DNA from: an uncultured bacterium
GTDB taxonomy: Bacteria; Patescibacteriota; Gracilibacteria; Absconditabacterales; Absconditicoccaceae
NCBI GenBank assembly: GCA_963537415.1
Contig: CAUTDF010000002.1
Coordinates: forward strand, 12,460-76,459
Direction: 5' to 3'
DNA length: 64,000 nucleotides
Positions within the stretch are counted from its first letter, which is position 1, and each line of letters begins with the position of its first letter. Both the position numbers and the translations under genes were made by a program. Positions 6,578-62,679 of the stretch are shown in pieces. Below the pieces are notes generated by a model. That model was not told the origin of the DNA and ran no database searches. It saw only the letters and a program-made list of their open reading frames with translations.

Positions 6578-6604
6578 AAAATCTGATTTTTATTCAGATT
6601 TTTC
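6578..6604 (-). terminator. terminator built from an inverted AAAATCTGA/TCAGATTTT pair (downstream of dus)
   Basis: aaaaaaaATCTGAtttttatTCAGATttttt. Confidence 0.5.
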
Positions 6605-6725
6605 TTGAGGCATTGTGGGGTGAAGCTGTGGACATCTTATAGTCAGCAAGTTTGATTTTCATCTAGATACCTTCACTGTCATTCCTAATGATAGCTGCAG
6701 TGAAACCTCGCAATGATAGTTGGTT

Positions 6726-7769
6726 TTATCTGTGAGAGGCTAACTCCTCTAATGCAGAGAAAAGTTCTCCTACAGTTTTGATAGGTATAACCTTTTGTTT
6801 TCGTTCACGAGTATCTGGTATTCCCTTTATGTATTGAAAGAGGTATTTTCTAAACTCTACGACTGAACGATATTCTTTTGAGAAATCAATCAGCTTTTTC
6901 AGCTTTTCTAAGTCTTCAAGTGTTGGTTGGTTGAGAGCGTAGTTATCTACCTTTTCTCACCATTCTTCAAATCGTAGATCACAGGCTATCATCATGAGTA
7001 GATGTTCTTGCATGGTCTCTAGTTTTTCGCTGAGTGATGGGAGATGTTGCGTGAAGATTCGTGGATTTCCTATAGCGCCTTGTCCAATCATGATTCCATC
7101 AAACTTTCATTGATCAAGTACTTCTTTGGCCATTTGATAAGAAGTGATGCCTCAGTTGGCGATAACCTTGCAGGGGAGGACTTCTTTGACTTGGTGGATA
7201 AATCAAAAATCAGCATCTCCTGTATAGAGTTGTTTGAGGGTTCTGCCGTGAATACTAATCAGATCGCAGCTTGGTGCGATACGTTTTAGGAAATCGAGTT
7301 GTTCAGGCTTGTCTTCTTCATGAAGTCCTGCTCTGGATTTTACAGAAAAAGATAAGTCAGAATTTTCTTTTACGATTTTTGAAAGATTTTGGATGATTGT
7401 GATAGTCTTTTCACGATGTCTAAGCATATCAGAGCCACCACCACATTTCATGACGGTATTTGATGGACATCAGGTATTGAGCTCTATCCCTGAGAATTGG
7501 TCGGCATATTTTTCAACTAAGATCTTGGCGGTTTGCAGGAGTGTTGCTTCATTTCCTCAGTAGATCTGAGCGATTGGGAGTTGTTTAGGTGTGGTCAAGA
7601 TATGCCTGATGACTTTGCTTGGATTGATGATAAAACCATCAGCATTCATAAACTCAGTTCGTAGCTGTAGGGTATCGTTTTGATTTTTATAATGATCAAA
7701 AATTTTTTTTGTGATCAGGCGGGTTGCACAATTTGTGATCCCATCCATCGGCGCAAAGCACAGTTGCAT
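6726..7769 (-). CDS. dus: tRNA-dihydrouridine synthase
   Basis: MQLCFAPMDGITN..., GIELNTGCPSNTVMKCGGGSDML, HGRT motif. 347 aa, TAA stop. Confidence 0.85.
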
Positions 7770-7804
7770 ATTGAGATTTTTCTAGGTTCTAAAAAAGAGG
7801 AGTT

Positions 7805-10105
7805 TTAACATTCTTCCAAAAATCTGAGTTCAACCTTTCTGAGTCAGAATTTTGGATTGTGAAATTTTACAATTCCGAGATTATTCCGTATTTCAAGTAC
7901 ATATCCAGTTCCAAAGAGCTTATGTCTTACAGTTGCTCATTCGGTGATTGAAGATTGATGTTGGGCTCCTCAACCTTTGGTGAGGTCGTAGAATTTGAGC
8001 AGATCATTTGGGATTTCCTGGAGAAATCTGCTGACAGGATTCATCTTGGTTTGCCCTCGAGTCATTCTGCTATTTGCATGCGAGATGAAGAGTGCGTCTT
8101 TGGCTCTAGTAATTGCGACATACATTAGTCTCCTTTCTTCTTCTAGCATTTTTGGTTCGAGAAGAGAGTTTGCGAGTGGAAAGATATTGTCCTCAGCACC
8201 TACGATAAATACAGCTGGGAACTCTAGTCCTTTACTAGAGTGGATCGTCATGAGTTTGACTGCGTCAGAATTTTCATCTGTATTTTCGATAGTATCTACC
8301 ATTAGGGTTACTTCTTCCAAAAATCGTCTCAGCAACTCTTCTCCAGAACTGATGATTTCTTCGTTTGCATTTGCGGTTCAAAATTCATATTTGCTCGCCA
8401 TGTTGATCAGTTGTCCAATGTTTTCGTACTTTTCTTCTGCAGTTTGTTCGCTGTCTTCTTCCTTGATAAGGTAGCCTTTATAGTCAATTTTTTTGACAAG
8501 ATATTCCGTGAGATCTGCTGGGTTAAGTGTTTTGATCGCTGTTGTTAATTGATTGAAAAGTTCAATAAAATCTTTGATCCCATCGAGTGCTGGAGTTGTT
8601 AGTTTGATTCAGCATTCTTGTTCAATTATTTTTGTCGTTCCCATTTCAGAAAGTGTGAGAAGTATTTCATAGAGGCTTACTCCCATTTCTAAGGCATAGG
8701 ATTCTAATCTTTCAAGTGAAGTTTTTCAGATTTTTCTATTTGGAATATTGAGTACTCTCTTGAGCGATACCGTATCAAATGGGTTATTGATGACTTTGAG
8801 ATAGGCAAGGATATCCTTGATTTCTTTTCTTTCAAAAAATTTAAATGCTCCATAGATTTTGTAGGGGATTCCTTCTTGGACAAAAAGAGATTCAAAATTC
8901 TGAGATTGAGAGTTTGTTCTATAAAGGATTGCTACCTGTCCTCGTGATTTCAGTTTCCCTTTATCTTTCATTTGTTTGATGAGATCAATTGTATTCGCTG
9001 CTTCATCAATATCGGTATTGTACGTGAGAACAGTAATTTTGTCGTTTCATTCTCTATACGCGATGATATTTTTTTCGTATTGGTTTTTATTCTGCTTGAT
9101 AACAGCATTACCTGCTGATACGATATGCGCTTTTGAACGATAATTGGTTTGGAGCTTAAACATTTGGATATCTGGCCAGTATTGTTTTACATTGAGAAAG
9201 TTCTCCATAAGTGCACCTCTTCGTCCATAGATACTCTGAAAATCATCTCCAATGAGCGTGATATTTGCTCATTCTCAGCTCATCATTTTCATCAGTTCAA
9301 ACTGGATCCAGTTGGTATCTTGCGCTTCATCTACGAGAATATAGTCAAAGCTGTTTTGCCATTTTTGAAGGACTTCAGGGTTTTTTTTGAAGAGTTGATA
9401 GGGGAGGAGCAGTAAATCATCAAAATCAAGGCTGTTTGATTTTTCGAGTTCCTTTTCGTATTCTTGGTAGAGTTTTCCCATCTGATCTTCATAGTTTCCG
9501 TTGCTATATTTGAGGAAAAGTTCTGCAGTTCTTCCTTCGTTTTTTTGCTTTGAAATAAAGCTTTTTACTTCTTGAGGTTTGAAGGTATCCGCCATTGCAT
9601 ATCTTTTGAGAATGTCTCTGATGATTTTTGCGCTATCATCGGCGTCTAAGATTCCAAAGTTTTTATTGTACTTCATCTCTAATTTTTCGATATCTTCCTT
9701 AAGAATTTTGAGGAAAATTGAGTGGAAAGTTCCAATCCATTTGAGTTTTCTTGGATCAAGGTGCTGCATTGAGCTCGGAGTAGTTGTATTCATTTCATTG
9801 AGAAAATCTCAAAAATCTGAGTCAGATTTTTGTTCTTCATTTGTAAATGATTGGCTAGAAATTTCGTCTCAAAGCTTGATCAGTCTTTCTTTCATCTCGT
9901 TTGCTGCTTTGTTGGTGAAGGTTACCGCTAAGATTCTCTCTACTTTGATATTTTTTCACCAGATTAGATATGCGATCTTGTAGGTAAGCACTCTCGTTTT
10001 TCAACTTCCAGCACCAGCAATAATCAGAGTTGATGTATTGGTATGGAGTGCAGCAGCGGTTTGTTCATCATTGAGATTTGAGGCGATATAGTCTTTGAGT
10101 TGCAT
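7805..10105 (-). CDS. pcrA: ATP-dependent DNA helicase PcrA/UvrD
   Basis: Walker A AGAGS-G-KT with the Gly encoded by TGA at 10001-10003, ILVDEAQDTN, TIHSSKGLEF, VAITRAKD, C-terminal Tudor-like tail. 766 aa. Confidence 0.92.
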
Positions 10106-10370
10106 ATTTATATTTTATCTCAAAAGTGGTAAAAATCTGATTTCAGATTGTATGAAATCTACTCTGAGTTTCAATTTCAAATGAGAGATTTTTTTATCAT
10201 TATTTTTCTCTTGATTTTATGTATAAAGAAAATGGCTAAAAATCTGATATATTCAGCTTTTTATTTGATGTTCTCTGCTGAAAATTAAAAACTGTGTTAT
10301 TTTCTCTTGATTATCTATCGCCAATCACTATAAAGGTCTTCAGTCAAATTTTTATATTGTTTGAGGAATA

Positions 10371-11086: not shown

Positions 11087-11698
11087 ATGGATATTAGAAA
11101 AAGAATCAATGCGAGGAAAGTGGTATTAGCCTATATTTACGAGCATTGTTTTTTTTCTGCAATGCAAAAAAATCTGATTGTTCAGCCATCTAAAGTTGCT
11201 GAAGCATGAGATCAGATTTCTTCTTCTGATACTCCAGTTGAAAACTCATTTTTTGATGCTGAATTTCTCAAACAAGTAGCATCAAAAAAACAGCAGCAAG
11301 AGCATATTGATGAGTATGTCCAGGCACAAGTTACTGAGTATTTGATCAATCAGAGTCCTGAGGAAGATGCTGGGTATTTGATGAAGTATGGTTTTGATCA
11401 GTGGCAACTTGAGGAGATTGATACAGATTATGTTTTTAAGGTGACTTCTGCTATTTCTCGTTATGAAGAGGAATTGATTGAGAAGGTTAATCAGAATACG
11501 CAAACTTTCCAATATGAGCAGATGGATATTATGGATCAGGTATGCCTTTTGCAGGGGTATTTAGAGGTAAAGGTGATGGATACGCCGCCTGCTGTGGTGA
11601 TCAATGAGATGGTTGAGCTGGCAAAGAGGTATTCTGATGATGGAGCTCCAAAATTAGTAAATGGGCTGTTGAATACTATTTTGATAGATAAGAAATAA
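11087..11698 (+). CDS. nusB: NusB-family antitermination protein
   Basis: C-terminal MDIMDQVCLLQGYLEV...VVINEMVELAKRYSDDGAPKLVNGLLN matches the NusB fold signature. 203 aa, one TGA. Confidence 0.7.
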
Positions 11699-11704
11699 CT
11701 AGAG

Positions 11705-13302: not shown

Positions 13303-13338
13303 TTTTGTTTTTCGTTGGTTTAAAAGTCAGATTTTTTA

Positions 13339-14799
13339 TTATGCTGCAATTCTAAGTGTTTTCATCTTTTCTTTTGTAGATGGTTTTTCAAAGAATGCAA
13401 TCGCTTCAGCGAGTTCAGGCTTATTTTTAGCATATTCATGAATATCTACTCCTTTCTGATATGCTTCACAGGCTTGCACAAGAGCCTTAGCGCCTGACTG
13501 AGTTCCCTTTGGATGAGCGTGACATCCTGCACCCATTGTTGTGATGAAATCTACATTTCCCATGAGATCAATGAAAGGTTTGAGAAGAGTTGGATTGAGA
13601 CCTCCAGAGATGATAGGGCAGCAGGTCTTGATTGCTCTCCAGCTATCATCGGTAAGTACTTCTTCATTATCTTCGTCTCTTTGTACGAGAGCTACGAAGT
13701 CTTTATCAGTTTCTGGGATTGTTCCCCAAGACTGTTCAAAGATATGTCCAGTCTTTTTCATATATCTGATACCTTCTGCTGCAGTTACATCTTCTGCTTT
13801 ATCTCCAGCCATTTTTCCAACTCCTGCGGTTCCTGTATGGATTCCAGAAGCTCCAGCGAGTCTTGCAAATTTTGAAAGGACTAAAACTGAGTATCCAATA
13901 GGGTTTTCTGGTCTAGTGAATGCACCATGCCCAGCTCTATGAAAGTGGATAAATACATCTGGATACTTTCTTCTCAAGGTCTGAACAGCCATCCAACCTG
14001 CTGTTGTTCCATCAATTAGGAAGGCATAAGATCCTGGTTCAAATCCTGCGTTTCTAATCATCTCACATCTTTCGATCATGGTATCGTAATCAGCAGCTGA
14101 TACATTGAAAGAGTGCACCTTTTTCTGTCCAGTTTCTTTTACTGCTTTGTCCATAGCTTCCTTTACATGCTTTACCATTTTATCATAAGGACAAAAATCC
14201 TGATTTGCCTGTGGTTCATCATTTTTTACAAAGTCTCCTCCTCATACCCAAAAATCATAACATACCTCAGCGTATTCAGCAGAAGTAAGTCCCATCTTTG
14301 GTTTGATGATGGTTCCGAGGATTGGTCTATTGTAAACATTGAGGTATTTTCTCATGTCTGCTAGGGTATAGCTTGGTCCATCGTATTGTTCAAGCATTGC
14401 AGGTGGAAACCATACATCAAGAATTTTTAATGCTTTTACTTCCTTCATTCCAAAGACATTTCCCGCAATATAGGTGAGGATATTCTGAATATTTCCACCT
14501 CTATCAAAAAGTCTCCATGGGTATGCGATCCAGATAAGTTCTTTTTCGGCATCTACCTTATATACGAGGGCATTCATTTCTTTTGAAAAGGCAGTTTCCG
14601 TCTCAACTAGGAAATTTGTTCCAGTAGAGGATTCAGCTGCAACTTCACAAGCTGCCTGGAGAATGTTCATTGATTTTCCAGGTTGAAAGTGCGCTGCAAC
14701 AAGCATATATTGTCCATTTTTTGGATTTGGGAGATCAAGATTGACATAGGCCAATTGATGATCATTGAGTGTTGGTAAAAGGTCTTTTACGTTTGACAT
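13339..14799 (-). CDS. rbcL: ribulose-1,5-bisphosphate carboxylase/oxygenase large subunit, form II/III-like
   Basis: IIKPKMGL, FWV-G-GGDFVKNDEPQ (TGA at 14242-14244), IHFHRAGHG, SGGLNP, plus an insertion before SGGLNP (EQSWGTIPETDKDFVALVQRDEDNEEVLTDDSW). 486 aa. Consensus promoter upstream. Confidence 0.93.
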
Positions 14800-14833: not shown

Positions 14834-14861
14834 ATTATATTCAGATTTTTTTATTTTGCAA
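14834..14861 (-). promoter_or_regulatory. sigma70-type promoter of rbcL
   Basis: TTGCAA (14856-14861)-N16-TATAAT (14834-14839) on the minus strand, about 35 nt upstream of the rbcL ATG. Confidence 0.6.
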
Positions 14862-16120: not shown

Positions 16121-16372
16121 TTAGACCTTAAGTCAGATTTTTTTACTGATTTTTGTGTAAGCATCTAGATCCTTTGCTTTTAGGTATCTCAAGAAAGATC
16201 TTCTCTTTGCTACCTTTTTCAAAAGACTTCTCTTTGCATCATAATCTTTTGCATTAGTTGCAACATGTGCTTGCAACATTGCGATTTGATCAGATAAAAG
16301 ACCGATTTGCATTTGTGGAGACCCAGTATCTCTCTCGTGTCTCTGAAATACATTTTCCTGTGTTTTTGCCAT
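16121..16372 (-). CDS. rpsO: 30S ribosomal protein S15
   Basis: MAKTQENVFQRHERDTGSPQ... The C-terminus ...KKI-G-LKV only matches the conserved S15 end (..LGLR.) if TGA 16133-16135 is Gly. Confidence 0.9.
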
Positions 16373-16448
16373 TAAACAAACCACTTATAAAAATAAAAAG
16401 AATTCTGAACAAACCCAAAAGCAAATTGCCTTTTTCGGAATGTCCACG

Positions 16449-16520: not shown

Positions 16521-16604
16521 TTGAGCATACGCAAAAATTTCCTCCTCAAGGGGAATGCTGATCTTTTATATTTATTTGCGATATAAAATCAAGGAGAAAG
16601 AATC

Positions 16605-16647
16605 AGATTTTTTTGATTGAAAAAAGTCCTATGAGTTACATAGGACT
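16605..16647. repeat. direct repeat A (terminator module) flanking the lipoprotein islet
   Basis: agatttttttgattgaaaaaAGTCCTATGagttaCATAGGACT, about 85% identical to 18026-18067. Lies 85 bp from tRNA-Arg(CCU). Confidence 0.7.
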
Positions 16648-16653: not shown

Positions 16654-17178
16654 CTATTGTTCTTCTGATTTTGCGTTATTTGTTGGGAAAGTATTGAGTT
16701 CCCATTTTGCTTCTCTATACCAGATAGTACCTTTAACTTTTGCTCGAGGTTTTATTATACTAGTATTTTCTTTGTATCCACGGAATACATACTCTCCACG
16801 TAGTCGCATCGAATTTTTGTCAAAATACCATTTAAAGCTTTCATCAGATAGCTTGAATTTTCTTGTGCGATTACTTCCTATATTGTATTGAAATATTTCC
16901 CATTCTCCGATAAATTTTGGTATATTAGGAGTCGTTATTTCTGTCGGTTCAAACTCTATGATAAGAGCATATTCAACTTCGCCTTTGTGATATTCTGATT
17001 GTGCTTGAATATAGGTATCCCACATAAAGCCGTTTGAAACTATTACTTCTGATTCAGATTTTTGAGTAGAACTTTCTACAGAAGTAGTGTAGTAATTGTT
17101 AATGATTTCTTCCTTTCTGCAAGAGCTAAAAGAAAGACTTAGTGTAAGCATTGTGATGATAATAATATTTCTTTTCAT
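16654..17178 (-). CDS. lipoprotein, unknown function
   Basis: MKRNIIIITMLTLSLSFSSC lipobox. 174 aa, no TGA, TAG stop, own hairpin terminator (16625-16647). Confidence 0.7.
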   Translation of the reverse strand: MKRNIIIITMLTLSLSFSSCRKEEIINNYYTTSVESSTQKSESEVIVSNGFMWDTYIQAQSEYHKGEVEYALIIEFEPTEITTPNIPKFIGEWEIFQYNIGSNRTRKFKLSDESFKWYFDKNSMRLRGEYVFRGYKENTSIIKPRAKVKGTIWYREAKWELNTFPTNNAKSEEQ

Positions 17179-19407: not shown

Positions 19408-22400
19408 ATGGTTCAAAATTCTATTGATGTTTTAAAGAGTTTGCAGTCTGAGACTGATAAGATCAAGGCAGATCTTGATGCTTTAAAAAAGCTGACAGAA
19501 AGCAAGGAAAAGGCTCAGAAAAAGCTTGAACTTTACCAATCTATTCAGGTTGTTCAGGAGCTTGCAAAAGTTCAGTTTGAGAGGGAGAAAGATCAAAATG
19601 TAAAAGAGAAGATTGCAGAGGTGCAATCTAAGGTTTCTGATTTTTCAAAAGAGCTTTGAAAACTAGAAGATGTGGTTTCTCAAGGGAAAGATCAAGCGGA
19701 TCAGGATTCTAGGACTATGAATCCAGATAATGGGAAAGATAAAACATCAACTCAGAAAAAAGAGGAGTGAACTTGGGCATCTCTCAAACATTTTACTGGA
19801 GAGCAGCGAGATGCGGTTCGTAGTAAGGAAACTTGGAGTAAAGAACCTGGGAAAAATATTCTTCGTACCGCTGGTTTTGTAGCTACAGGAGTTGGTGCTG
19901 CTGCTCTTGTGTATAAGGGGGTTAAGTGGCTCTTTGGTAGTGATGAGGAAGAAGAAAAGGAGGAAAATAGCAAAGAAGAATCAAAGTCAAAAAAAGAGAA
20001 AAAAGGCTGATTTTGGAATAGTTGGTTTTGAAAGGCTTTGAAATGGGGAGGAATAACTGCTGGTTCAATTTGGGGGATTAGTAAGCTCTGGAACTGGTTT
20101 AATGGCGATGTTGAGCCATCAAGGGGAGCTTCATGAGAAGATAAATACAATGGTTATGATAAGTTTCACTCTAATCCAGAAAATAAGGAAAAGGCTGAAA
20201 ATTATGAGAGGATTGGAGAGAATATCGATGTATTATATTCAACTTTTTATCAAAAGGAACTTGATGCTGGATATCAGGATGAGTTAGAAATGCAGAGAAT
20301 TTCTAATGAAATGAAAAAATCTAATCCTGATGCTAAAAATTATAAGTGAATCATCCCATTTTGTCTAGATAATCAATACGGAAGTGTTGCAGCTATTTTG
20401 GAGCAAAATAGTTCATTTAAGAGCTTGTTAGGAGAGGGATTTGCCAAGATGAAGAATCATATTCTCAGCTGGAGTACCGAGAAACTTGCTGTTTTGGTGG
20501 AATCATTTTTTAGTAAGTTGCCGTCTTGGAAATTGGTTGAAAATATTGAAGGATCAATCGTTGATAAAATTAAGGCGTGGGGAGAGAATAGTGAGGAAGC
20601 TCAGAATGAATTAAAATATTTTTTTAGGCAAGGGATCAGAGTTCAGACTTTCCTTTTTGAAAAGAAGGATCAGCTTGCTGATGCTATCGCGGAGAAAAAA
20701 TCTAAAACCCTTAATATTTCTAAGAAAGAGCTTCTATCTGATAGTGATAATTTTGAAAAATATATTGCAAAGGATCCTGATTATCAGGCTTTTGTCGATG
20801 CTCCAATTGCTGGTGCGATGAATATTCTCAAAAAATATGGGCTTGATTCAGCAGATGTTTCACAAGATCTTAAAGATGAGATTCAGAAACTTGATCAGAG
20901 AAGAGATGAGCTTTTGGATGCTCAGAGTGGGCAATCAGATATTTTGCAAGTAGCATATAATAAAAAGTCTGGAGAAGTATTTAGTCCAGATGAGAAAAAG
21001 AATCTTCAATCAGCATGTGAGAATGTTGCCAAAGATATTGATGAAGAATTGATTGATGCTGTTGAGGAGAGTGTATTAAATATGTATGGAGATCTATTTG
21101 CAACAGATAATGCATGTTTAAGAGAATATATTGAAAAATCTGGTCTTCATGAGATCCTTCGTGGTTCTCAGACTTTTCTCCAGCAACAAAAGCAGCGTTT
21201 GGCGAATTGAGAGGAAATTCCTACAGAGGAACTCAAGGCTACAGCTCAGGTGATGAATGATCTTTTAGCACTCAAAAAGGAATGTTTTCTCGGGCAGATG
21301 ACTATCCAAAAAGATATCGATGAGAACTGAAATATTATCTATAGAGTGCCAGGATTTTTGCTTGGATCAATAAAGAATTTATGAAAGAGTCTCAAACAAG
21401 TGTATAACTGAGAATATCTGTCAGGTTTTTCTACTTTTATGGGTTCGCTTTTGGGAACTGGAATTGTGATTAGTGCCGCAGGAGTGCTTATGAGAAGTAA
21501 TAAAACTGTGATTTTGGGACTTAAAACAGCGGGTGCTCCGTTGACAGTACCGCTTTTTGTGCTGAATAAATTGATGGAAAAAACCGCGATTGGAAGTAGA
21601 CTGAGAAATAAGATGATCTATGGATCTCCAAGCTGGGTACAGTCAAATCTTTTCTTTAGAGGTGAACTTGGACAAGAAAAATTGCTTACAGCACTTGATA
21701 ACTGAGATATTTCTCTTGAAAAAGTTGAGCGTATTTTGAGCAGAAAGAGCCATGCTCCGTTTATGGATGTAGATAAAAGAGAAGAGTGGCTCAAGATGTT
21801 CAATATATCCAAAGATACCAAGAAAGAGGACTATCTTGCTAAAATCTTTGATACCTATGTAACAAGAAAGAACGGGCAACAATATCTTTTTGATCTGAGA
21901 AATAATCATAGAAATCTGTATGATGATCTTGTAAAATACTTTGATCATTCTTCAGATATTAGAGAGGCGGTGAGGACCGGTGTAAGTCCAGATGCACTGC
22001 AGATCGGAGTTGATAAATTCAATAAGGGATTGCCTGTTGATTTTAAAGGTATTCAGCAGCTCTTGGATAGTCCTGAGTATAAGGGACTTGTGCAAAGAAC
22101 TCTTAATTCAAAAGCTTCCTTGTCAAAGCAGTTAAAAAAAACTAGTTCAGATGCTGGTAAGCTAAAAATCAAGCAACAACTTGATTCTTATGATGAACTT
22201 TTAGATATGTTGTCTTGAAAAACGAGTTCAGAAGTTGCTCAAATAGTTGATGTTTTAGATATGTTTTGACCATCTCAAGATGCTGGGCTCTCTGTTGCAG
22301 CGATCAAAAAGTTAAAAACTCTTTCTCGTCTTCAGGATGCGGTAGATGCTAATTGAAATAAACTGGTTTCTAATTTTGATGATATTTTGAAAAATCTTGA

Positions 22401-22584
22401 TACTGATGAATTAGTTAAATTGCTTAACAAAAAAATCGGTTGAGTGCTGGATTCAGAATTAGATAGTTTGATTAAAACTTTCAAAACTATTAAAGCTGAT
22501 GGATTTAAAAAGGCAATAAAAAATGCTGATGAGTTTGCAATTTGTGTGAAATCCCTCTTTAAGTTTGCAGCTAAGATTAGCTAA
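19408..22584 (+). CDS. giant orphan membrane-associated coiled-coil protein A (1058 aa)
   Basis: Single frame joins track ORFs 19408, 20398, 21439 and 21736. Gaps translated by hand contain only TGA (15 in total). Glycine-zipper/hydrophobic segments at about 19858-19935, 20011-20100 and 21436-21570. TAA stop. Confidence 0.75.
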
Positions 22585-28757: not shown

Positions 28758-28965
28758 TATAGTTTCGCTTGGTTAAAGTTTTTTATGATAATAAGGAAAG
28801 GGTATTTGGTTTCAATTGAAAATGAGAATTATTCTGCTATGCTTAAAATCTATTGTTACAAATAGGCTCCTTTTATATGAATTTGATTTTTTTAGATATT
28901 TATCATGAGAGAGAAAACAAAAAATCTGACTTTTGTAGTCAGTTTTTTCTTTTATTCAAAATATT

Positions 28966-29104: not shown

Positions 29105-29347
29105 TTATTTTTTACTCTTCTGTTTTGCCCAAAGTATGGTACTTTGTGCGGCATTTTTTGCCTGTGGACTATTTTTATAGCAGGAACTTCATGTTATTTC
29201 TGCTCAGCGGGTAACTATTTGTTCCGTAGAGGTATTTTTAAGTTTTTCCACTGATCAGAAGCCCATTTCTTCTAAACGATCTATGAAAGTGTTACCGATT
29301 CACTTGATAGCAAGGAGCTTTTCTCTTTCTTCCTTTGTGAATGCCAT
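29105..29347 (-). CDS. small helix-hairpin-helix protein
   Basis: 80 aa. LLAIK-G-IGNTFIDRLEEMGF-G-SVEKL looks like an HhH motif with GIG and G encoded by TGA. Last gene of the murE-comF string. Confidence 0.45.
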
Positions 29348-29412
29348 GCTTATCTCTCAAACAGTGATAAAATAAAGATGCTTTGAAAAATAATTAGATG
29401 CGTTGAATAAAG

Positions 29413-30703: not shown

Positions 30704-30734
30704 CTTTGTAAAAAAGATAAAAAGTCAGATTTTT

Positions 30735-32244: not shown

Positions 32245-32278
32245 TAGTAAAAACCTTTATTTTACTTCTTGGTATTCT

Positions 32279-40343: not shown

Positions 40344-40424
40344 CTTAGGTATTCAAAAGCTAAAACCAAGCGATCTGATTTCGAAAAAAGAATGAAGTCA
40401 GATTTTTGATTTAGTTTTTTATTT

Positions 40425-43655: not shown

Positions 43656-43973
43656 TTATTTGGATAAGACTCGGTTTGCGAGCTGATTGAGCTGTTCTTG
43701 CAGGGCTTTTCACTCTGGACTGAGATAGTAATTAATTTTTAGCGGTTTTGACTGTGAAACTTCCCTGATAATCAGGTTTTTTTCTAATAGAAGGTCCAAT
43801 CTCTCAGTGAGCACTTTTGAGTTTATTTGTGGGAGCCTTCTCATGATTCCTGAGAAGCTGGAAATCCCCTCAGATAGTGTTTGGAGAATATGGAGGGTCC
43901 GCTTTTTACCAAAGGTTTCAAAAAGCTGATAAATTGGACATTCGCTTGATCGTGCTTGAATAGAGGATTCCAT
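43656..43973 (-). CDS. HxlR-family winged-helix transcriptional regulator
   Basis: CPIYQLFETFGKKRTLHILQTL...FSGIMRRLPQINSKVLTERLDLLLEKNLI. 105 aa. Divergent from an NAD(P)-binding gene (the classic HxlR arrangement). Confidence 0.75.
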
Positions 43974-44175
43974 CAGATTTTTCTTTTTTGAACTAAAAGA
44001 TAGTTACTTGACTATAGTAATTTAGTGTAAAAAGTAAAGTTGTTTTTCTCGTGCTTACTTTTTGGTAAGTAGATTGTCTTTCGCCTATTGAAAATTTTAT
44101 TTTTTTCACTATAAGTACGCCAACACTTAACTTTATAAAAGAAAGTGATTTACTTTATTAAAGAATATTAAAATA

Positions 44176-45989: not shown

Positions 45990-46219
45990 AAAATAATAAA
46001 ATTTATGTTGTATTTTATTTCTATATTCTTATGGTAACTCAGGATTCATCGTATTCTTTAAGTGGTGATGAAAGAAATGTCCCAACTTATTTAGTAGTTA
46101 AAGATTCTAAATAAGTTGTGATGAAAAAATGTAGAACATGAACACATGAAAAAAAGGAGGAGTATTGTACTCTACCTTTTTTGTTTTGTTTTTGAGAGGA
46201 TTCCATTTTATGAAATCTA

Positions 46220-46267
46220 ACTTTTTTGAATTTTCATTTGAAGTTTGAGTATAAAACTGTACAATCA
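46220..46267 (+). repeat. duplicated promoter block, copy 2 (drives serS)
   Basis: acttttttgaattttcatTTGAAGtttgagtataaaactgTACAATca. -35 at 46238-46243, -10 at 46260-46265. About 85% identical to copy 1. Confidence 0.7.
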
Positions 46268-46309
46268 CTAGTGTATTTCAGATTTTTTTATCTTTTAAAG
46301 ATATGTTCC

Positions 46310-47545
46310 ATGATTGATATCAAAAAAATTCGCGATGATGTAGCTGCTTACAAGCTTATTTGTCAGAAGAGAAACATGAATATTGATGTAGACTGAGTAC
46401 TTGCACTTGATGATGAGAGAAAACAGTTGCAATTTTCTATTGATCAGGCAAAAGCTGAGCAAAAGCAATTGGCAAGTCAACAGGACTATGAATGAGCTAA
46501 AAACCTCAAGGTTAAGATTCAGGAACTTGAGGCTCAACATACTGAAATTGCGGCTCAACTTGAGAAGATGCTTTTGAAGATGCCAAATACGAGTCTTGAT
46601 CCAAAAATTCCTGTTGGAAAGGATGATAGTGAAAATGTGGTAGCTGAGGTATTTTGAGAAATTCCTCAATTTTGATTTGAGCCACAGAGTCATATTGATT
46701 TGATGAAAAAACTTGATTTGGTTGATTTTGAGAGAGGAGTGAAGATCGGAGGAGCGAGGAGTTATTTTCTGAAATGAGATGGAATGCTTTTGGAGCAGGC
46801 TGTTTTGCAATATACTTTGAAAAAATTGGTAGAAAGAGGATTTACTCCACTTCAGGTGCCAAATATTGTGAATCCTGAATGTCTTATGGGGACTGGATAT
46901 TTCCCTGGAGGAGAGGAAGATGCTTACTGGATGGAGAGAGATAATCAGTGGTTGATTGGAACTTCTGAGATTTCAGTTACTGCCTATCATATGGGAGAGG
47001 TTTTGGAAGAAAATGAACTTCCAAAGAAGTATTGTGGATATTCTGCGTGTTATCGTCGTGAAGCTTGAAGTTATGGTAGAGATACCGCAGGTCTTTATAG
47101 GGTACATCAGTTTATGAAGGTAGAGCAGGTTGTGATCTTACCAGCTGACCTCAAGATGACTGAACAATATTATCAGCAGATTCTCCAGAATGCGATGGAC
47201 GTTTTGAGTGACTGTGAGGTGCCATATCGTCTTTTACAGCTTTGTACTGGGGATTTAGCAATTGGTAAGTATATGTCTCATGATCTAGAGTGTTGGATGC
47301 CATCTAGAAATAGCTATGGAGAGACGCATTCAGTGTCTGCGTTCCTAGATTTTCAGGCTCGTAGGCTTAATCTAAGATATCGTGATCAAGAAGGAAAGCT
47401 CCAGTATTGTTATACTATGAATAATACTGCGATTGCGACTCCAAGATTTTTGATCGCATTGATAGAAAATCATCAAACAGCAGATGGAAGAATTAGGATT
47501 CCAAAGGTGCTTCAGCCGTATATGGGTAAAGAGTTTATAGGATAA
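46310..47545 (+). CDS. serS: seryl-tRNA synthetase
   Basis: MIDIKKIR start, coiled-coil arm, GARSYFLK-G, YRREA-G-SYGRDT.GLYRVHQF, TMNNTAIATPR. 411 aa. The frame stays open 63 codons further upstream, but homology sets the start. Confidence 0.93.
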
Positions 47546-48781: not shown

Positions 48782-49996
48782 ATGCTCCTAATCTGAGATA
48801 TTCATATCAATAGTAAAATTAAGACAGATTTGCTTTTTACACTTCGTGAGTTTGTGCAGGCTCATCCAGAAGAAAAAAATCTGATTTTTCTGTGAGATTT
48901 TGTGTATCATTTTAGTTATGATAGGTCTGCATTATTGTCTCTCTTTGAATGGTTTTTGGAACTCTATGCTCAAGGGAGATCGCTCTATATTTTGGCGGGA
49001 AATCATGATTGGCTTGGGAATTCGTTTGTTTTTGAAGAGGGGAAGAGAGTTTTTGATCTCTTAGAGTCTAGTTCATCAGCTGGGAAACTTAACTTTATTA
49101 CAGAGCCGATGTTGACCGAGATTGAGGGAGAGAAGATTTTGTTTTTGCCGTTTTGCTTAGATATTGATGAAAGTAAATATCCTGAATATCAGCTAGGAAG
49201 CTCACTATTGACTGAGGCTCTTTTGCAGTCAAAGGATAAAAATGAAGTTTTCTCAGGGAAGATCAATCAGCTTTTGAACTGATATATCAAGCAAGAAAAA
49301 AAGCTGACAATTATTCACCACTATTACACCAATAAACAGCAGTTCCCATGATATCTTTCGAGTTTTTCATTTAAGGATATTGCACTTTCTGAGCAACTTT
49401 TGGATAATCCAGATATTAAGCTGATTTCTGGGCATCTGCATGCGCCATTTGTTTTCAAAAATTGTTTTTGTGCAGGAAGTGTTTGGGCGACTTCCCCTCT
49501 GGAGATGAATCAGGTAAAGGGGCTTTGGACTTGGAGAGATGGGCAGCTTTGATTTTTTGAGCAGCAGGTTAATTCGTATTTTCAGATTGAACAATCAAGA
49601 CCTGTTGTTGCTCAAGATGTTGAGAAGATTCATGAGGAATGTTTAGAGTTTTTGAAAAAGCAGTTTGAAAATCAGAATTTTTTTCCTTTGTGAGCTTTTG
49701 AAAAACAAGCTCTTAATCTTAAAAAAACAACTTTGAATCTTAAGGTTGAACAGCTCAATTATGATCAAGTAAATAGTGTGATTGATGATCAGCTTAGGGA
49801 GCAATTGGCTGATTTTAGGCTTAAAAAATCAACGAAAAAGGTCAATGATCTTTTGGAAAAGTTGGAGACTCCTGACAAGGATAGTCTTTTGACCTTTGGA
49901 TGATGGAAGGAGTTATTGAGAGACTTTCTCAATAAGCAATATCCAGAGGAATATTCAGCTTATGAGAAAGCGCTCAAGGAACTTAAGATTTTATAG
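48782..49996 (+). CDS. calcineurin-like metallophosphoesterase with helical C-terminal domain
   Basis: LI-G-DIH, L-G-DFV, AGNHD, SGHLH motifs in order. 404 aa. The 3' half of the frame was hand-checked. Confidence 0.75.
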
Positions 49997-51173: not shown

Positions 51174-52532
51174 TTAGAGTTTGAAGAGGTCATTTAGTGC
51201 TTCACTCATTGTTGGATGAGTAAAAATATGATTACTAAGTGCAGTGTATGGGAGATTTCGCTTCATAGCTAGAGATATGATATTTATCATTTCATGCGCT
51301 TCTGAGCAATACAGTGATGCTCCAAGGATGAGTCCAGTTTTCTCGTCGATAACTGCTTTTAAGAGTCATTGTGCTTTTCCAAGGATTCTTGCTTTGGGAA
51401 TTGCTGCTCATTCTAGTTTTCAAACTTTTATAGTATATCCTTGTTCAATTGCTTGTTTTTCGGTAAGTCCAATTCTCGCGAAAGGTGGGTTGAGAAAAGA
51501 GCAATAAGCAAATGTTGCTCTGTCTTTTGTCGATCTCTGAGCGTTCCCAAAGAGCTGATCTGTGATGATTCTAAAGTCATCAAGAGAAATATAGGTAAAT
51601 TGAGGATTTCCTGTTACGTCTCCTATTGCATAGATATTAGGAGCAGAAGTCTGAAGGTGTTCATTGACCTTTATCGCACCTTTGGCTGTGGTTTCAATTT
51701 TTGTGTTTTCTAGGTGGAGATCTTTGATATTAGGGCTTCTTCCAACGGCAAGAAGAAGTGCATCAGCTGTCAGATTTTTTGTCTGATCTTCAGTCTCAAG
51801 TGTAAGATTGAGTTTATTGTTTTCCTCGTTGATTTCGGTGAGCTTTGTTGAGTCGAGAAACTGGATACCTCTTTGTTCAAAATCGGCTCTAATTCTTGCT
51901 ACGACTTCTTCATCTTCATTAGGAAGAATATTTGGATGGGTATTGATGATAGTAACTTTGCATCAAAAGTCTGCATAAATTGAAGCAAATTCTAGTCCAA
52001 TAAATCCGGCACCTAGGATTGCTAAGTGTTCAGGGTATTCTCTGGTTTTCATGAGTTCTGTACTGGTATAGACTTTTGTTGTGTTTTCAATTCATGGGAT
52101 TTCTGGGCGGTTGCTTGTTGCTCAGGTATTGATAAAGATTTTCTCTCCTGAGATTGTTCTTTCTCATTCTGGACTAGTTATTTTGATTTCATGATCAGAA
52201 ATAAAGCTAGCAGTTCCATCAATGATTTGAATATTTTCAAAGGCTGCAAGCATTGCATAATTTTTTTCTCTCAGAAAAGCTGTTAGCTTAGTTGTCTCAT
52301 CTATAGCTTGCTCGTAGTATTCAGATTTCTCTTGAAGTGTTGTTGGATGTTTTTCCTGAGAAAGTGTGAGGAGTTTTTTTGATGGAATACATCAAATATT
52401 GATACATGTTCCTCCGTACATTTCCGGATTTTGCTCAATAAGAGCTACAGTTTCTCATTTTTTTGCGAGCGCAACTGCGAGGGTTTTCCCTCCTTTTCAG
52501 AATCAAATAATAATATTATCAAAGGTATTCAT
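51174..52532 (-). CDS. class I pyridine nucleotide-disulfide oxidoreductase (dihydrolipoamide dehydrogenase/glutathione reductase family)
   Basis: II-G-F-G-KGG (both Gly are TGA, 52497-52499 and 52503-52505), redox centre GGTCINI-G-CIPSK, second GAGFIGLE, C-terminal HPTMSE. 452 aa. Confidence 0.88.
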
Positions 52533-53421: not shown

Positions 53422-55329
53422 ATGGCTTGGGAGTTAAAGGTAGATCAGTTGACAAAAATTTATACTGGGAGACCAATTATTGATCATCTAAGTTTTACTG
53501 TAGAGCAGGGGCAAAAGATTGCTCTTGTTGCCAAGAATGGTGGCGGGAAGACCACACTTTTGAGGCTTCTTATTTGAGAACTAGATAAAACTGATGGAAA
53601 GATTGAATGGAGAAAGGGGCTTAAAATCTGATATTTGCCTCAGGATTTTCGTGGAGATCTGAATCATACGATAGCAGAGGAGTTGTTTGCGATTTCTCAT
53701 CCAGCTGCAAGTCTGATTAGGGAATATGAATGACTTGTGCAAAATCCAGATACTGATCCTGAGCGTTTTCGGCAGCTTTTTGATGAAATTGATGCGATCC
53801 AGGCGTGGGACTATGAGTCTAAGGTAAACACTATTATTTCTAGATTACAGTTGACGTCTCTTCTTCAGCAACCGCTTTCAACGCTCTCGGGGTGAGAGTT
53901 GAAAAGAGTAGCCTTAGCAAAAACACTGATTGATGAACCAGATTTTTTGGTACTTGATGAACCAACTAATCACTTGGATTTACAGATGATTGAGTGGCTT
54001 GAAAATTATCTCAAAAATCAGCATTCTACCTTGTTTATGATAACGCATGATAGGTATTTTTTGGAAAGTGTATGTGATGAGATTTATGAGCTAGATAGAT
54101 GAAAATTGTACTTTTATCCGTGAAATTATAGTTATTTTTTGCAGAAGCAAGCTGAGAGGAGAGAAAATGAATCGATTGCCACAGAAAAGCTTCGTCAGCT
54201 CCTCAAAAGGGAACTCGTTTGGATGCGTAAATCGCCAAGGGCAAGAGCGACCAAACAAAATTATAGACAAAAAGAATTTTATCAGTTAGAAAGTCAGTAT
54301 GATGAGCAAAAAGAGCTTTTGTATTCGGAATCTGGTACGCTTGATATCCCAGTGCAGGAGAGGAGACTTTGAACTAAGATTCTTAAAATAAAAAATCTGA
54401 AAAAAGCTTTCGGTCAAAAAATGATTTTAGATCAGTTTTCTTATGATTTTAAGTTTCAGGAGCGTATTTGAATTATTGGGAAAAATGGAGTTGGAAAGTC
54501 GACTTTTATAAAACTTTTGCTCTGAGAGGAGCAGCCTGATAGTGGAGTGCTTCAAGTTGGGCAGACTGTAGTGTTTTGACATTATCAGCAGGGTGAGATT
54601 GAGTTTCCAGAGTGAAAAAGAGTGATTGATGTGATTAGAGATGTTGGTGAATATCTGGTTTTGGCTGGTGGAGAGAAGATATCGGCTTCAATGCTTTTAG
54701 AAAGGTTTTTGTTTCCTGCTCAGCAACAGTATCAGTTTGCTACTTCCCTTAGCTGAGGTGAGAAAAGGAGGCTCTTTCTTTTAAAAACGTTGATGGCAAA
54801 TCCAAATTTTTTGATTTTAGATGAACCAACAAATGATTTAGATCTTTTGACGATCAGAATTTTAGAGGATTTTTTGTTGCAATTCCGTGGATGTTTACTG
54901 ATTGTCTCTCATGATAGAGCATTTATGGATAGATTGGTTGATCATTTGTTTGTTTTTGAGGGGGAGGGAAAGGTAACTGATTTTCGAGGAACATACACAG
55001 AGCGAAATCATCTCCAAACTCAGCAAAAAGAACAAAAAACTGATCTTTCTCATCAGGTTTCAGTTGATCTTTCCTCAAAAGCTTCTGAGTCATCCACTTC
55101 AATAAAAAAGCTCTCATATGCAGAAAATATTGAGCTTCAGCAATTGATCAAGGAGCTTGAAGAACTTGAAGATGAAAAGCAACAAATTAGTCGCATCTTT
55201 GATAATAAGGATTTGCCTTATGATGAGATTGCTTTGCTTTCCGAACACTTGTGAGGTATTATTAAAACTATTGAACTCAAAGAGGCCAGGTGTTTTGAAT
55301 TGATGGAGAGACAAGAGGCTACTTTATAA
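53422..55329 (+). CDS. ABC-F family ATPase (Uup/EttA-like translation factor)
   Basis: Two ABC cassettes: AKNGGGKTT / LSG-G-E / LVLDEPTNHLD and -G-IIGKNGVGKST / LS-G-GEKRR / LILDEPTNDLD, plus a C-terminal coiled coil. Gaps hand-checked. 635 aa. Confidence 0.9.
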
Positions 55330-55418: not shown

Positions 55419-56714
55419 ATGCCAGAAGCAGTAGTTGCTCAAAATATTACTACGGTTCCGCTTTCTGAGGTGAATCCACCAGAGCAAAAGAAACCTTCTT
55501 TTTTTGATAGAACGCTTGGAAAGCTTGTCGGATTTATTGCTAAGGCGACTGGACAGCCTGATCCTATTACTGGGATTAAAAATGGAGAATCTGCTCCAGC
55601 TCAGCAGGGGATGAATCAAGAATGAGTAGCGCAAATGCCTATTGAGGGGCAACAAGTTCCTCAGCAGGAGCCTTGATTTTTCCAAAAATTGGTTGCGAGT
55701 ACACAAAACCTGCTCAATAAGACAAATTCTGTAGCTAGCAGTATTACCAGCACGACCTCAAATATTGCTGGAAAGATTACTGAGAAAACGAATGCTGTTG
55801 CAGGTGCGATAACCTCAGCTCCAACAATGGTTGCAAATCAGGCAACAAACCTGATCAATAAGGGGGTTGATATGTGAGGTCAGCTTAAGGACTCTATCCA
55901 GACTAATGCACAAAGTCTTGCTGGGAATGTTCAAAATTTTGCAAGTAATCCAGTTTGAGGAGTGCAAAATTTTGTAGCTAATCCAATAGCTGGAGTCCAA
56001 AACATAGGAAATCAAGTTATGCAATCAGGTCAACAGGTGATGGCTTCTGCTCAACAGATGTGAGGTCAAGTAGTACATGGCGTTCAAAATGCTGGAGGTC
56101 AGGTAATGAACGGTGTTCAGAATGTTTGATGAGGAGTAGTTTCGAATATGCAAAATATGTGAGGACAGATGATGAATGGGGTTTCGCAGTTTGCAAGTAA
56201 TCCAGTTTGATGAGTTCAGAATTTTGTAGCTAATCCAATGGCTGGAGTCCAAAATATAGGAAATCAAGTAATGCAATCAGGGCAGCAAGTTGTTACTTCT
56301 GCTCAGCAGATGTGAGGACAAGTTGTGAATTCAGTTCAGGGTGTAGGAGTTCAGGTTCCTTTTCAAGTTCCAGTTCAGGCGACTGAATCTGTTCCTGTAC
56401 AAACTCAAGATGCGGTTGCTGTTCAAATACCTGAGAATGCTTCTCAGACTCAGGTAGTGGCGCAATCAGTTCCTGTTCAGCTTAATCCTATTGAAAATGT
56501 TTTCTCAGGAATCAAACAGGGGGCAACTAACTTTGTTGAGAAAACCAAGCAGTTTGTCCAAAATCCTGTTGAAAGTATTGATGGTTTTGCTGGATCTGGT
56601 GCTCAAACTGACCAAGTTTCAGTTCAAACAGAAACTGAGAATACAACCAGCTTAGATCAATTAGGAAATGGAAATCAGATAGAAAAATCTGAATCAGTTC
56701 CTGTGCAAATGTAG
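55419..56714 (+). CDS. Q/N/V/G-rich repeat protein, unknown function
   Basis: 431 aa in one frame with about 13 TGA, including two tandem TGA-TGA. 138-nt internal direct repeat (55938-56075 / 56190-56327) encoding FASNPVGGVQNFVANP.AGVQNIGNQVMQSGQQV..SAQQMGGQVV. Confidence 0.65.
55938..56327 (+). repeat. intragenic 138-nt direct repeat pair (55938-56075 and 56190-56327, offset 252 nt)
   Basis: The two copies align codon for codon with about 15 substitutions. Both contain TGA-encoded Gly. Confidence 0.8.
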
Positions 56715-57282: not shown

Positions 57283-57510
57283 CTTTTATTTCTGATAAGA
57301 AAATAAATGTTTTCTCAAAGTGTATGAAATATTTGTCTGTTTTCAAGGAAAAATTGTGATTCTCATTAGATTTATTTTTTTGATGGAGTGTAAAAAGGAT
57401 GAAAAATCAGATTTTTTTGTTTTTTTGAAGAAAAAATGCGAAATCACTCTTGCTTTTTAAGAGGATTTTAATACAAGTAAGATTGATTTTATATTCTATA
57501 CATTAGCAAA

Positions 57511-57912: not shown

Positions 57913-58392
57913 ATGAGTAAAAATTTTCTTACCAGAGAGTGATATGATAAGTTGATTAATGAACTTCAGGAGCTAAAACAGGAGAAATTGCCCGCGGTCT
58001 TAGAAAGACTTGCTGAGGCAAAGGCTATGGGAGATCTTTCGGAAAACTTTGAGTACAAATCAGCTATGGAAGATAAGGATTTTATCAATTCAAGAATTGC
58101 TGAAATTACTAATCTTATCGCTGATGTTGAGATTGTAGAAAAGGAAAAAGATATCAAAAAATCTGACAAAGTCGTTGATTTTGGATCAAAAGTGACTGTG
58201 AGAATTGAAGATGATGATAAAGAATATCAGGTTTCTATTGTTGGTACCTGAGAAATCGGTATCGAGGATGGTTTAAAGATATCATTTGAATCTCCGCTTG
58301 GTCAGGCAATCAGAGGAAAAAAGGTTGGAGATACGGTGAAAATGAGACATGAAGGTGGAAGAAAAGATGTGAAAATTATAGCGGTAGACTAA
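57913..58392 (+). CDS. greA: transcription elongation factor GreA
   Basis: LT.E-G-Y.KL..EL..L, GDLSENFEYKSA, C-terminal FKBP-like domain SPLGQAIRGKKVGD. 159 aa. Confidence 0.9.
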
Positions 58393-61757: not shown

Positions 61758-61762
61758 ATTTC

Positions 61763-61790
61763 TTGACTTTTTCTTAAAAATGTTTATCTA
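61763..61790 (+). promoter_or_regulatory. cassette 3 promoter
   Basis: TTGACT (61763-61768)-N16-TATCTA (61785-61790). Confidence 0.45.
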
Positions 61791-61817
61791 TATATTCACA
61801 ATTAAATAAAAAAGGAT

Positions 61818-62237
61818 ATGGGAACAAAAGAAAAAAATCTGATTTTTGTCGCTCGTTGTCTAGGTAATGGAAAGATTATTCATTATTCTTTAGATGAGGT
61901 TAGTATTTTGGCTGAAGATGTTTTAGTCTATGCTCAGGCGCTTAAAGAGAAGAAGGACAACCGTTTGAAGAATGGTTTGTATCGTTATGATTATGCGAAT
62001 ATCGCACCAGATATTCTCTACAAATTAAAAGAGGAAAATAAGCTTAAGCTTGCAAATTCTCAAGTTTTATTAGCACTTGGGCGAGGCGCAGATTTCTTTC
62101 CACTAGTTTGTGAAATCAAGAATATTCAGTCTAAACTAGGAATGGGTAAAATAGGTAATTCTGGTCAACTTGAGCTTTCATCTGAAGCTCCTCTTTTTAA
62201 TACTTGGATTACTCGACTTCTACCCAAGCGGAATTAA
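61818..62237 (+). CDS. orphan paralog cassette protein 3 (divergent)
   Basis: 139 aa, no TGA. C-terminal FNTWITRLLPKRN aligns with cassettes 1 and 2, and its TAA falls exactly where they have TGA. Confidence 0.6.
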   Translation: MGTKEKNLIFVARCLGNGKIIHYSLDEVSILAEDVLVYAQALKEKKDNRLKNGLYRYDYANIAPDILYKLKEENKLKLANSQVLLALGRGADFFPLVCEIKNIQSKLGMGKIGNSGQLELSSEAPLFNTWITRLLPKRN

Positions 62238-62248
62238 AAAATTAGAAA

Positions 62249-62277
62249 AACAGCACCTGTATGAGGTCGCTGTTTTA
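62249..62277. terminator. cassette 3 / ruvX bidirectional terminator
   Basis: AACAGCACCT gtatg AGGTCGCTGTT plus T-run. Same AACAG...CTGTT stem family as cassettes 1 and 2. Confidence 0.6.
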
Positions 62278-62679
62278 GTTTTCAGATTTTTTTGATTGTT
62301 TTCGTCTTTCAAGGATAATCATTGCACTGATGGTGTCTGTCGTTGCATTTTTTTTGAAGTCAGAAACGATTTCTCCTGATTGCACACTACTGAAATCTTC
62401 ATCTATAGTTTCGATTTCAATCCTTTGATTTTCAATGATATAATTAAGAGATTCCATAAATTTTGTGATATGTTCTTGGATATCTTTTTGTTTCTGGGGC
62501 CATCAGAGAATGATTTTTCTAATGTGATATCTCTGGATGAGATCTGCTATATAGTAATAGGTCATTGCATCATTCATTACATATCCAATCGGAAAAACGA
62601 CATCTGCATTGAGCGGAGTATAGGCGAGGCCAATATATTTACTACCTCGATCAATACCAAGAGCATGAGAAACTTTCAT
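62275..62679 (-). CDS. ruvX: YqgF/RuvX-family nuclease (pre-16S rRNA nuclease)
   Basis: LGIDRGSKYIGLAY, IIL-G-WPQ, IDEDFSSVQS, DTISAMIILE. 134 aa. Confidence 0.75.

Follow-up and report, generated by a model that had tools for sequence, protein, structure and literature searches.

Sequences that enhance DNA uptake in a sequence-specific manner have been described only for the Neisseriaceae, where they are termed DNA uptake sequences (DUS), and the Pasteurellaceae, where they are termed uptake signal sequences (USS), and about half of them lie in terminators (bioRxiv 10.1101/2025.10.24.684340). Neisseria meningitidis holds 1,892 DUS and Haemophilus influenzae 1,465 USS, the latter consisting of an essential inner core and, on its flanks, weaker AT-tracts by which the DNA is pre-bent (PMC7811141). 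The DUS occurs in dialects that all keep an invariant CTG and differ by single bases around this core, tracking phylogeny (PMC3630211). Our literature searches found no uptake sequence in Absconditabacteria or the candidate phyla radiation (CPR). Here we report on the 9-nt word TCAGATTTT, read as AAAATCTGA on the opposite strand, in a 64-kb stretch of DNA from an uncultured bacterium; this whole stretch, hereafter the window, corresponds to C2:12460-76459 of the focal genome. An earlier note, made from the letters of the window, had drawn attention to the word and likened it to the DUS, a reading that the evidence favors: TCAGATTTT is probably, if far from certainly, the core of a putative transformation-linked DNA uptake sequence in one clade of Absconditabacteria.

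The focal genome comprises 985,910 bp in 28 contigs and is 99.8% complete, with the SR1 bacterium human oral taxon HOT-345 as its closest named relative. The organism is an ultra-small, probably epibiotic SR1 bacterium (Absconditabacteria) of mouth or gut. The window contains 46 exact copies of the word, compared with 4.25 ± 2.1 in dinucleotide shuffles (maximum 13). The over-representation claimed earlier from at least 30 copies is thus real, and every position given then corresponds to a true copy, offset by 0-6 bases. The whole focal genome has 624 copies (one per 1.58 kb), and TCAGATTTT and its extensions are its most frequent 8-, 9-, 10- and 11-mers. The word therefore has the abundance of a DUS/USS-type element, namely a 9-10-nt word in hundreds to thousands of copies above the expectation from composition and codon use.

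Evaluating the copies within genes requires the correct genetic code. Open reading frames (ORFs) are fragmented under translation table 11, and long genes return once TGA is read as sense. In PcrA (7805-10105), codon 35 is a TGA that aligns with the invariant glycine of Walker A, and the focal genome has a tRNA(UCA). Given these three observations, we assigned genetic code 25 (TGA = Gly), which the earlier note had missed, and dropped the table-11 gene calls. The resulting gene model, based on in-frame versus off-frame hexamers, comprises 829 genes with 88% of the genome coding; some gene starts are over-extended, so that a few copies counted as coding near gene starts are probably intergenic. 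Under TGA = Gly, Pfam searches of the window confirmed TyrRS, PcrA, MiaA, ComF, a Mur ligase, DprA, a Wzy_C ligase, a metallophosphoesterase, ABC-F, GreA and RuvX, and with them the gene names given previously.

Coding DNA contains 421 copies, compared with 42 ± 6 after shuffling codon order within genes (10x), 97 ± 9 after shuffling synonymous codons (4.3x), and 74 and 165 under order-3 and order-5 Markov models, respectively. The corresponding values for intergenic DNA are 198 copies versus 22 (order 3) and 104 (order 5). The excess thus survives both Markov and codon-shuffled nulls; the expectation of a maximum-order Markov model is uninformative, because the sub-words of the word are themselves enriched. 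Intergenic density is 3.6x the coding density, and two thirds of the copies lie within genes; the word is not confined to terminator stems. All six coding frame and orientation classes are occupied (sense 73/28/77, antisense 80/78/83). The complement of TCAGATTTT includes the recoded TGA codon, and its in-frame placement is not preferred (80/78/83 copies over the three frames); an in-frame TGA (Gly) context was accordingly rejected as the cause of the word. The excess is a DNA-level signal that is orientation-neutral and overrides codon preference.

Spacers of all kinds carry the word in both orientations at similar density, with 1.6 copies per kb in divergent, 1.9 in co-directional and 1.7 in convergent ones. 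The leading-strand bias of 58:42 (240:171) equals the 59:41 expected from composition (37.4:25.8), and the spacing of copies is Poisson-like (coefficient of variation 1.02); the tests of spacing and orientation bias proposed earlier thus revealed no polarity beyond strand composition. For the degenerate motif described below, the largest gap is 5.3 kb, versus about 4.9 kb expected, and no significant motif desert or island was found in the focal genome. This distribution over both orientations, over spacers and several frames of genes, and without replication polarity is that of DUS/USS-type elements. Among the longest motif-free stretches are C3:54214-59517 and C4:25247-29881 of the focal genome (G000), with a GC content of 24% and 27%; their genes have no counterpart in the congener G013, and the two low-GC stretches may be recently acquired islands.

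Analysis of the surroundings of the word revealed a fuller consensus, TCAG-NN-TTYT, which like the genetic code is an addition to the earlier note. In its degenerate form TCAGNNTTTT, it occurs in 1,452 copies versus 285 expected, and TCAG ranks first of the 256 4-mers in that configuration. One-mismatch variants surround the word as a halo, and the single-mismatch spectrum is strict at T0, C1, A2 (where T is tolerated), G3, T6 and T7. The loose positions are 4 and 5, at which every variant is still 3-8x enriched; T8 may be replaced by C. Upstream, A-rich patches span -16..-10 and -4..-1; downstream, a T-run at +9/+10 precedes another T patch at +14..+18. These flanks are alike in intergenic, coding-sense and coding-antisense copies. 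The A-tracts upstream and T-tracts downstream are phased about one helical turn apart. This flank pattern points to an asymmetric element of about 35 bp with a probable intrinsic bend. Enrichment extends to the perfect palindrome AAAATCAGATTTT (106 observed versus 2 expected). Two-fold symmetry of the HIP1 or dimer-palindrome type is absent, the central A being favored 2:1 over T, and the mismatch spectrum rules out a symmetric palindrome or dimer site, because T0 is strict and its symmetric partner A4 is loose.

We compared the focal genome with its relatives in a 41-genome panel and in an order-wide scan of 141 genomes, together with a handle scan and de novo k-mer statistics. Of the 16 congeners in the panel, 13 carry the word in hyper-abundance (370-640 copies), and all other genera of the panel are at background, with 10-30 copies of the reversed-word control everywhere. 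The word is thus conserved in sister genomes, a comparison for which the earlier note had asked. With this, the three findings that by that note would have refuted its reading have all been looked for, and none was obtained. Across the 141 genomes, TCAGATTTT and TCAGATTAT behave as reciprocal one-base dialects with 10-20-fold preferences. The T-dialect TCAGATTTT prevails in the focal genus (370-640 copies versus 20-40 of the A-form) and leads in the genera g52 (565 versus 29), g56 (300-470 versus 48-79), g49 and g58. Conversely, the A-dialect TCAGATTAT leads in all five species of g29 (405-619 versus 26-67), in g48 and in g51. Many genera of the order carry neither dialect, and no hyper-abundant word of any kind was found in five other sampled lineages. 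Own dialects were considered for the low-GC congeners, G017, G023 and G032, and rejected, these genomes being simply motif-poor.

Motif status is strongly clustered on a tree of the DprA domain (0 of 200 shuffles were as low). A clade with 89/91 support joins the T-dialect genera g1, g56, g49, g47 and g58, and also holds the moderately enriched G060 and two motif-poor genomes; g29 is monophyletic. The dialects are therefore lineage-specific, share a common core and follow phylogeny, as do those of DUS/USS-type elements. Close strains have motif positions in common, apart from copies gained or lost by point mutation. In distant congeners the density is similar and the positions differ, indicating that the copies turn over.

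The focal genome encodes a ComEC of 509 aa (C13:17902-19431) without the C-terminal beta-lactamase domain, ComF, DprA, two full PilB/T ATPases and at least five pilin-like ORFs. The com and pilus genes sought after the earlier note are thus present, except for a canonical ComEA, and the DprA and ComF that it had named in the window are confirmed. The only HHH_3 match in the focal genome lies within a 759-aa Tex-like protein (G000:C6:27564-29843), which we rejected as ComEA. Order-wide, ComEC was detected in 121 and DprA in 131 of the 141 genomes, and each of the 14 motif-rich genomes of the focal genus has ComEC. In the motif-poor congeners G009, G013 and G016, no ComEC was found, even when the focal protein served as query with a cutoff of E<=1. 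DprA is likewise missing from these three, and both PilB/T ATPases are kept. In G009, a 43-aa ComEC-like relic with TAG and TAA stops (C3:41323-41451) is apparently what is left, as a pseudogene, of a lost comEC. For G013, the whole genome was stitched (1.29 Mb, 99% complete) and searched by tblastn, which found no ComEC, ComF or DprA; the loss of ComF was checked in this genome only. G013 retains all five pilin-like proteins (30-43% identity) and PcrA (74%). Its word is merely 1.9-2.3x enriched, and its top 10-mer by z-score, AGTCAGATTT, is a faint fossil of the word.

Given that the focal genus is nested among T-dialect genera, the motif-poor congeners are best read as having lost the word secondarily, after the loss of DNA import. 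The machinery expected for a DUS/USS-type element (type IV pilus, ComEC and DprA) is present, and within the genus the word is lost only where ComEC and DprA were lost as well. Cultured Patescibacteria undergo natural transformation via a ComEC/ComFC/DprA system, in which ComEC is required, and their type IV pili are essential for other reasons, which fits the survival of pili in the com-less clade (PMC10633639).

A small helix-hairpin-helix (HhH)-like ORF in the window (29105-29443, minus strand), probably encoding 80 aa from Met33, overlaps the 3' end of comF. It is a lead only, as a candidate com-associated DNA-binding protein, and no homologue was found in G013. The 80-aa protein has homologues of the same length and about 50% identity, annotated as 'recombinase RecA', in oral Aggregatibacter (Pasteurellaceae), which points to cross-phylum sharing among oral bacteria. 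Their neighborhood, a fructose phosphotransferase system operon, gave no functional context.

From the statistics, anatomy, dialects and com-gene co-distribution described above, we infer that the word biases uptake or transformation, as well as the step involved. In the proposed model, cells would bind extracellular double-stranded DNA through type IV pili, import one strand via ComEC, and process and recombine it with ComF, DprA and RecA. One of these steps would favor fragments carrying the word, most likely binding at the cell surface, where a pilus-associated protein may recognize the strictly kept TCAG and TT on DNA that the A/T tracts have bent beforehand. The favored fragments would then replace homologous alleles, so that the word would spread by molecular drive where coding constraints allow, and would decay once import stops. 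A more specific proposal, which we consider evenly balanced, is that SR1 has an independently evolved third family of uptake specificity, the first outside Proteobacteria and in the CPR, with at least two dialects (TCAGATTTT and TCAGATTAT), a pilus- or com-linked reader of the pre-bent DNA that has no relation to ComP or ComN, and maintenance only in the presence of ComEC, ComF and DprA.

Several observations weigh against assigning the word to DNA uptake. The typical, non-defining DUS/USS trait of frequent inverted pairs and about half of the copies in terminators is not seen here: only 6.6% of the intergenic copies form the 3' arm of a stable hairpin, versus 12% of control T-run sites, and fewer than 10% of the SR1 copies lie in hairpins, compared with about half of DUS in terminators (bioRxiv 10.1101/2025.10.24.684340). 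The word is AT-rich and low in information relative to DUS and USS. The lack of a canonical ComEA adds to this, and for the cognate receptor there are candidates only, namely the at least five pilin-like ORFs and the comF-adjacent HhH ORF; co-loss does not single out a receptor, because about 196 further focal proteins are missing from G013 and each of the five pilin-like ORFs is matched there. Given so many other losses, the link between com genes and motif is not specific by itself. Their co-loss is also probably one evolutionary event in one low-GC sub-clade (G009, G013 and G016). G136, a 90% complete genome of g56, has no detected ComEC or DprA, yet holds 361 copies of TCAGATTWT, for which a recent loss of com genes or a gap in the assembly would account. 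As is to be expected, many genera with ComEC and DprA have no word, so that competence genes do not predict the motif. Finally, the organism is uncultured, and the putative uptake role is read from sequence.

Other functions for so frequent a word have to be weighed on the same evidence. The word might be bound by an abundant DNA-binding or architectural protein of the chromosome (nucleoid-associated or DNA-bending) that is unrelated to transformation and with which the dialects co-evolved. This would fit an orientation-neutral, evenly spread, DNA-level signal whose phased A/T tracts suggest bent DNA; such a reader could be among the roughly 196 proteins co-lost in G013, and the motif persists in G136, where neither ComEC nor DprA was detected. 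We nevertheless regard it as improbable. It did not predict that the sole motif loss within the genus would coincide exactly with the loss of ComEC, DprA and ComF, the copies turn over between species instead of staying at conserved architectural positions, and we know of no nucleoid protein that makes a 9-mer the commonest in-gene word against codon preference. A by-product of sequence-specific mutation or repair bias, either of the very-short-patch type or linked to a methyltransferase at TCNGA-like sites, would explain the one-mismatch halo, the point gains and losses between close strains and the lineage-specific pattern, and the core of the word resembles TCNGA-type restriction/modification sites. 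Known repair biases, however, yield modest excesses of 4-5-mers, and restriction targets are usually avoided, not enriched. Here a 10-mer is in 11-fold excess, its phased flanks extend to about 35 bp, asymmetry is evident from a strict T0 and a loose palindromic partner A4, and the coincidence with com-gene loss would be left unexplained, which makes such a bias quite unlikely.

It is very doubtful that the word marks self-DNA for some other recombination or defence pathway, be it by modulating a helicase-nuclease in the manner of Chi or by protecting the DNA from a nuclease. Its high density, lineage specificity and dialects suit such a marker, as does its enrichment in the DNA-metabolism genes of the window (four copies in PcrA and, leaving the inverted pair aside, four in the DprA region). 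Signals of the Chi/KOPS type are strongly co-oriented with replication, whereas the orientation of the word follows composition; no link to a particular nuclease was found, and the co-loss with com genes speaks for DNA import and not for the processing of double-strand breaks. Roles bound to replication polarity (Chi, KOPS or a primase site) were rejected because composition explains the orientation bias. We give hardly any credence to the remaining explanation, a preferred bidirectional terminator module of A-tract, stem and T-tract combined with favored codons or peptides, which the earlier note had offered, as terminator design plus Lys/Asn/Ser-Asp-Phe codon usage, as its alternative. Tight inverted pairs do exist, two clear gene-end hairpins stand in the window (6578-6602 and 34596-34618), and intergenic density is raised. 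The pairs, presented earlier as a prominent feature, number only 14 genome-wide, and a 3' stem arm followed by a T-run at gene 3' ends, the mark of an intrinsic terminator, is seen for a small minority of copies. Besides the shortage of stable hairpins, divergent spacers are equally dense although terminators are not expected there; a terminator module was rejected for more than 90% of the copies. Moreover, two thirds of the copies are in genes, in all frames and orientations and 4-10x over the codon-shuffle nulls, and terminator design does not explain a one-base dialect switch between genera. Altogether, terminator, promoter, Chi/KOPS/primase-type and mobile-element roles are rejected for the bulk of copies, because hairpins are few and the word is context-neutral, non-polar and unclustered. 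Transformation-linked DNA uptake thus remains the explanation that we favor.

The 46 copies in the window are exact 9-nt matches to TCAGATTTT (+) or AAAATCTGA (-). The TyrRS gene carries two, at 1380-1388 (+) and 1782-1790 (-), followed by single copies in ORF 2373-2648 (2516-2524, -) and in the minus-strand ORF 3359-4237 (3639-3647, +). An inverted pair with left arm 6578-6586 (-) and right arm 6594-6602 (+) stands at the 5' edge of the LysRS ORF. PcrA contains 7819-7827 (-), 8726-8734 (+) and both arms of an in-gene inverted pair, 9812-9820 (-) and 9822-9830 (+), with a hairpin dG of -8.7. Two copies, 10132-10140 (-) and 10239-10247 (-), occupy the divergent spacer between PcrA and the 10371 ORF, the former facing an imperfect partner arm. 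ORF 11087-11698 has a copy at 11169-11177 (-). The RuBisCO gene is flanked by two intergenic copies, 13327-13335 (+) downstream and 14841-14849 (+) upstream; further copies lie at the 3' edge of the minus-strand ORF 16121-16384 (16133-16141, +), in the intergenic region at 16603-16611 (+), in the minus-strand ORF 16654-17178 (17054-17062, +), in the 1348-aa ORF 22613-26659 (24215-24223, +) and in ORF 26666-27757 (27031-27039, -). MiaA carries 28620-28628 (-), and an intergenic copy adjoins tRNA-Arg (28921-28929, -). The comF/comFC-type gene (29413-30117, minus strand), which encodes a double zinc ribbon and a phosphoribosyltransferase domain, contains 29586-29594 (+). Copies are also found at the 5' edge of the minus-strand membrane-protein ORF 30143-30757 (30725-30733, +), in the Mur ligase (31800-31808, +) and in ORF 32183-32557 (32401-32409, +).

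The transformation gene dprA (DNA_processg_A; 34620-35615, minus strand) contains 34837-34845 (+), 34875-34883 (-) and 35106-35114 (+), with 35675-35683 (-) in the divergent spacer upstream; the convergent spacer downstream holds an inverted pair of left arm 34596-34604 (-) and right arm 34610-34618 (+), plausibly a bidirectional terminator. The region 34596-35683 thus has six copies in about 1.1 kb. Together with the four in PcrA, this local richness, seen in the window, recalls the reported bias of DUS and USS to genome-maintenance genes. Further along, the Wzy_C (O-antigen-ligase-like) gene carries 38388-38396 (+) and 39031-39039 (+), and 40398-40406 (+) is intergenic. The copy at 43973-43981 (+) is intergenic or at a boundary, and that at 46278-46286 (+) is in the 5' part of ORF 46118-47545, whose start codon is uncertain, so that it may be intergenic. 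The remaining copies lie in the metallophosphoesterase (48876-48884, -), the minus-strand ORF 51174-52532 (51770-51778, +), ABC-F (53623-53631 and 54392-54400, both -), ORF 55419-56714 (56684-56692, -), the intergenic region at 57407-57415 (+), GreA (58158-58166, -), ORF 61818-62237 (61834-61842, -) and RuvX (62282-62290, +). Of three terminator-forming inverted pairs proposed earlier, 6578-6602 (dG -12.4) and 34596-34618 (dG -9.2) form real hairpins and are plausible terminators; the third, 10131-10149, has one imperfect arm (TCAGATTGT) and folds weakly (dG -6.2).

Some neighboring genes of the window are of interest in themselves. The RuBisCO large subunit (13339-14799, minus strand) is of the form II/III type and 76-81% identical to archaeal (DPANN and methanogen) and Peregrinibacteria homologues, a typical CPR nucleotide-salvage RuBisCO. 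On the plus strand, two very large ORFs next to each other, 19408-22584 and 22613-26659 (1058 and 1348 aa), have the top coding scores in the window and no Pfam match, and show a single motif copy across 7 kb.

If the proposed role is true, uptake specificity evolves repeatedly and requires neither an outer membrane nor ComP-type pilins, and the motif-poor congeners offer a natural experiment on the decay of the word after competence loss. It would also help to explain the species cohesion of SR1 epibionts. Saccharibacteria have already been transformed by natural transformation (PMC10633639). For the genetically intractable, UGA-recoded SR1, the right dialect on donor DNA should then sharply raise transformation, and the element would guide donor design for oral SR1, for example AAA-TCAGATTTTT plus a T-tract versus TCAGATTAT. 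Furthermore, word density and dialect would provide a cheap genomic marker to predict actively transformable lineages among the uncultured.

Compared with known systems, the SR1 word most resembles uptake sequences in its layout. Like the Neisseriaceae DUS (GCCGTCTGAA, AT-DUS and dialects, with the minor pilin ComP as receptor), it is a hyper-abundant 9-10-mer at about one per 1-1.6 kb, on both strands and in genes and spacers, with occasional inverted pairs at gene ends, and is found alongside type IV pili, ComEC and DprA. Both have lineage-specific single-base dialects around an invariant core that follow phylogeny (PMC3630211), and the invariant TCAG of SR1, CTGA on the other strand, contains the DUS-invariant CTG, which may be coincidence. 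Unlike the DUS, it is rich in A and T, has a loose spacer of two bases and is flanked by phased A/T tracts; its host belongs to the Patescibacteria/CPR, is not expected to have an outer membrane and uses genetic code 25. No ComP homologue is known in SR1, and the role of the word in uptake is putative. The Pasteurellaceae USS, with the core AAGTGCGGT, two AT-rich flanking tracts and the predicted receptor ComN, shares with it a short strict inner core plus weaker AT-tracts (PMC7811141). In both, most copies lie in genes in several frames, accumulation is by point mutation and at least two dialects exist. The SR1 core is unrelated to that of the USS, its flanks are on both sides (A-tracts upstream, T-tracts downstream), and its ultra-small host is probably epibiotic, with a putative uptake role. 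Chi and KOPS (FtsK-orienting sequences) are likewise over-represented short chromosomal words read by proteins on DNA, the SR1 reader being putative; they are strongly co-oriented with replication, whereas the 58:42 bias of the SR1 word is the compositional expectation. HIP1 (GCGATCGC) of cyanobacteria is a perfect palindromic octamer occurring about once per kb in genes and spacers, lineage-specific, methylation-linked and of debated function. The SR1 word is similarly hyper-abundant, present in genes and spacers and lineage-specific, but in contrast to HIP1 it is asymmetric, and its maintenance tracks the com genes.

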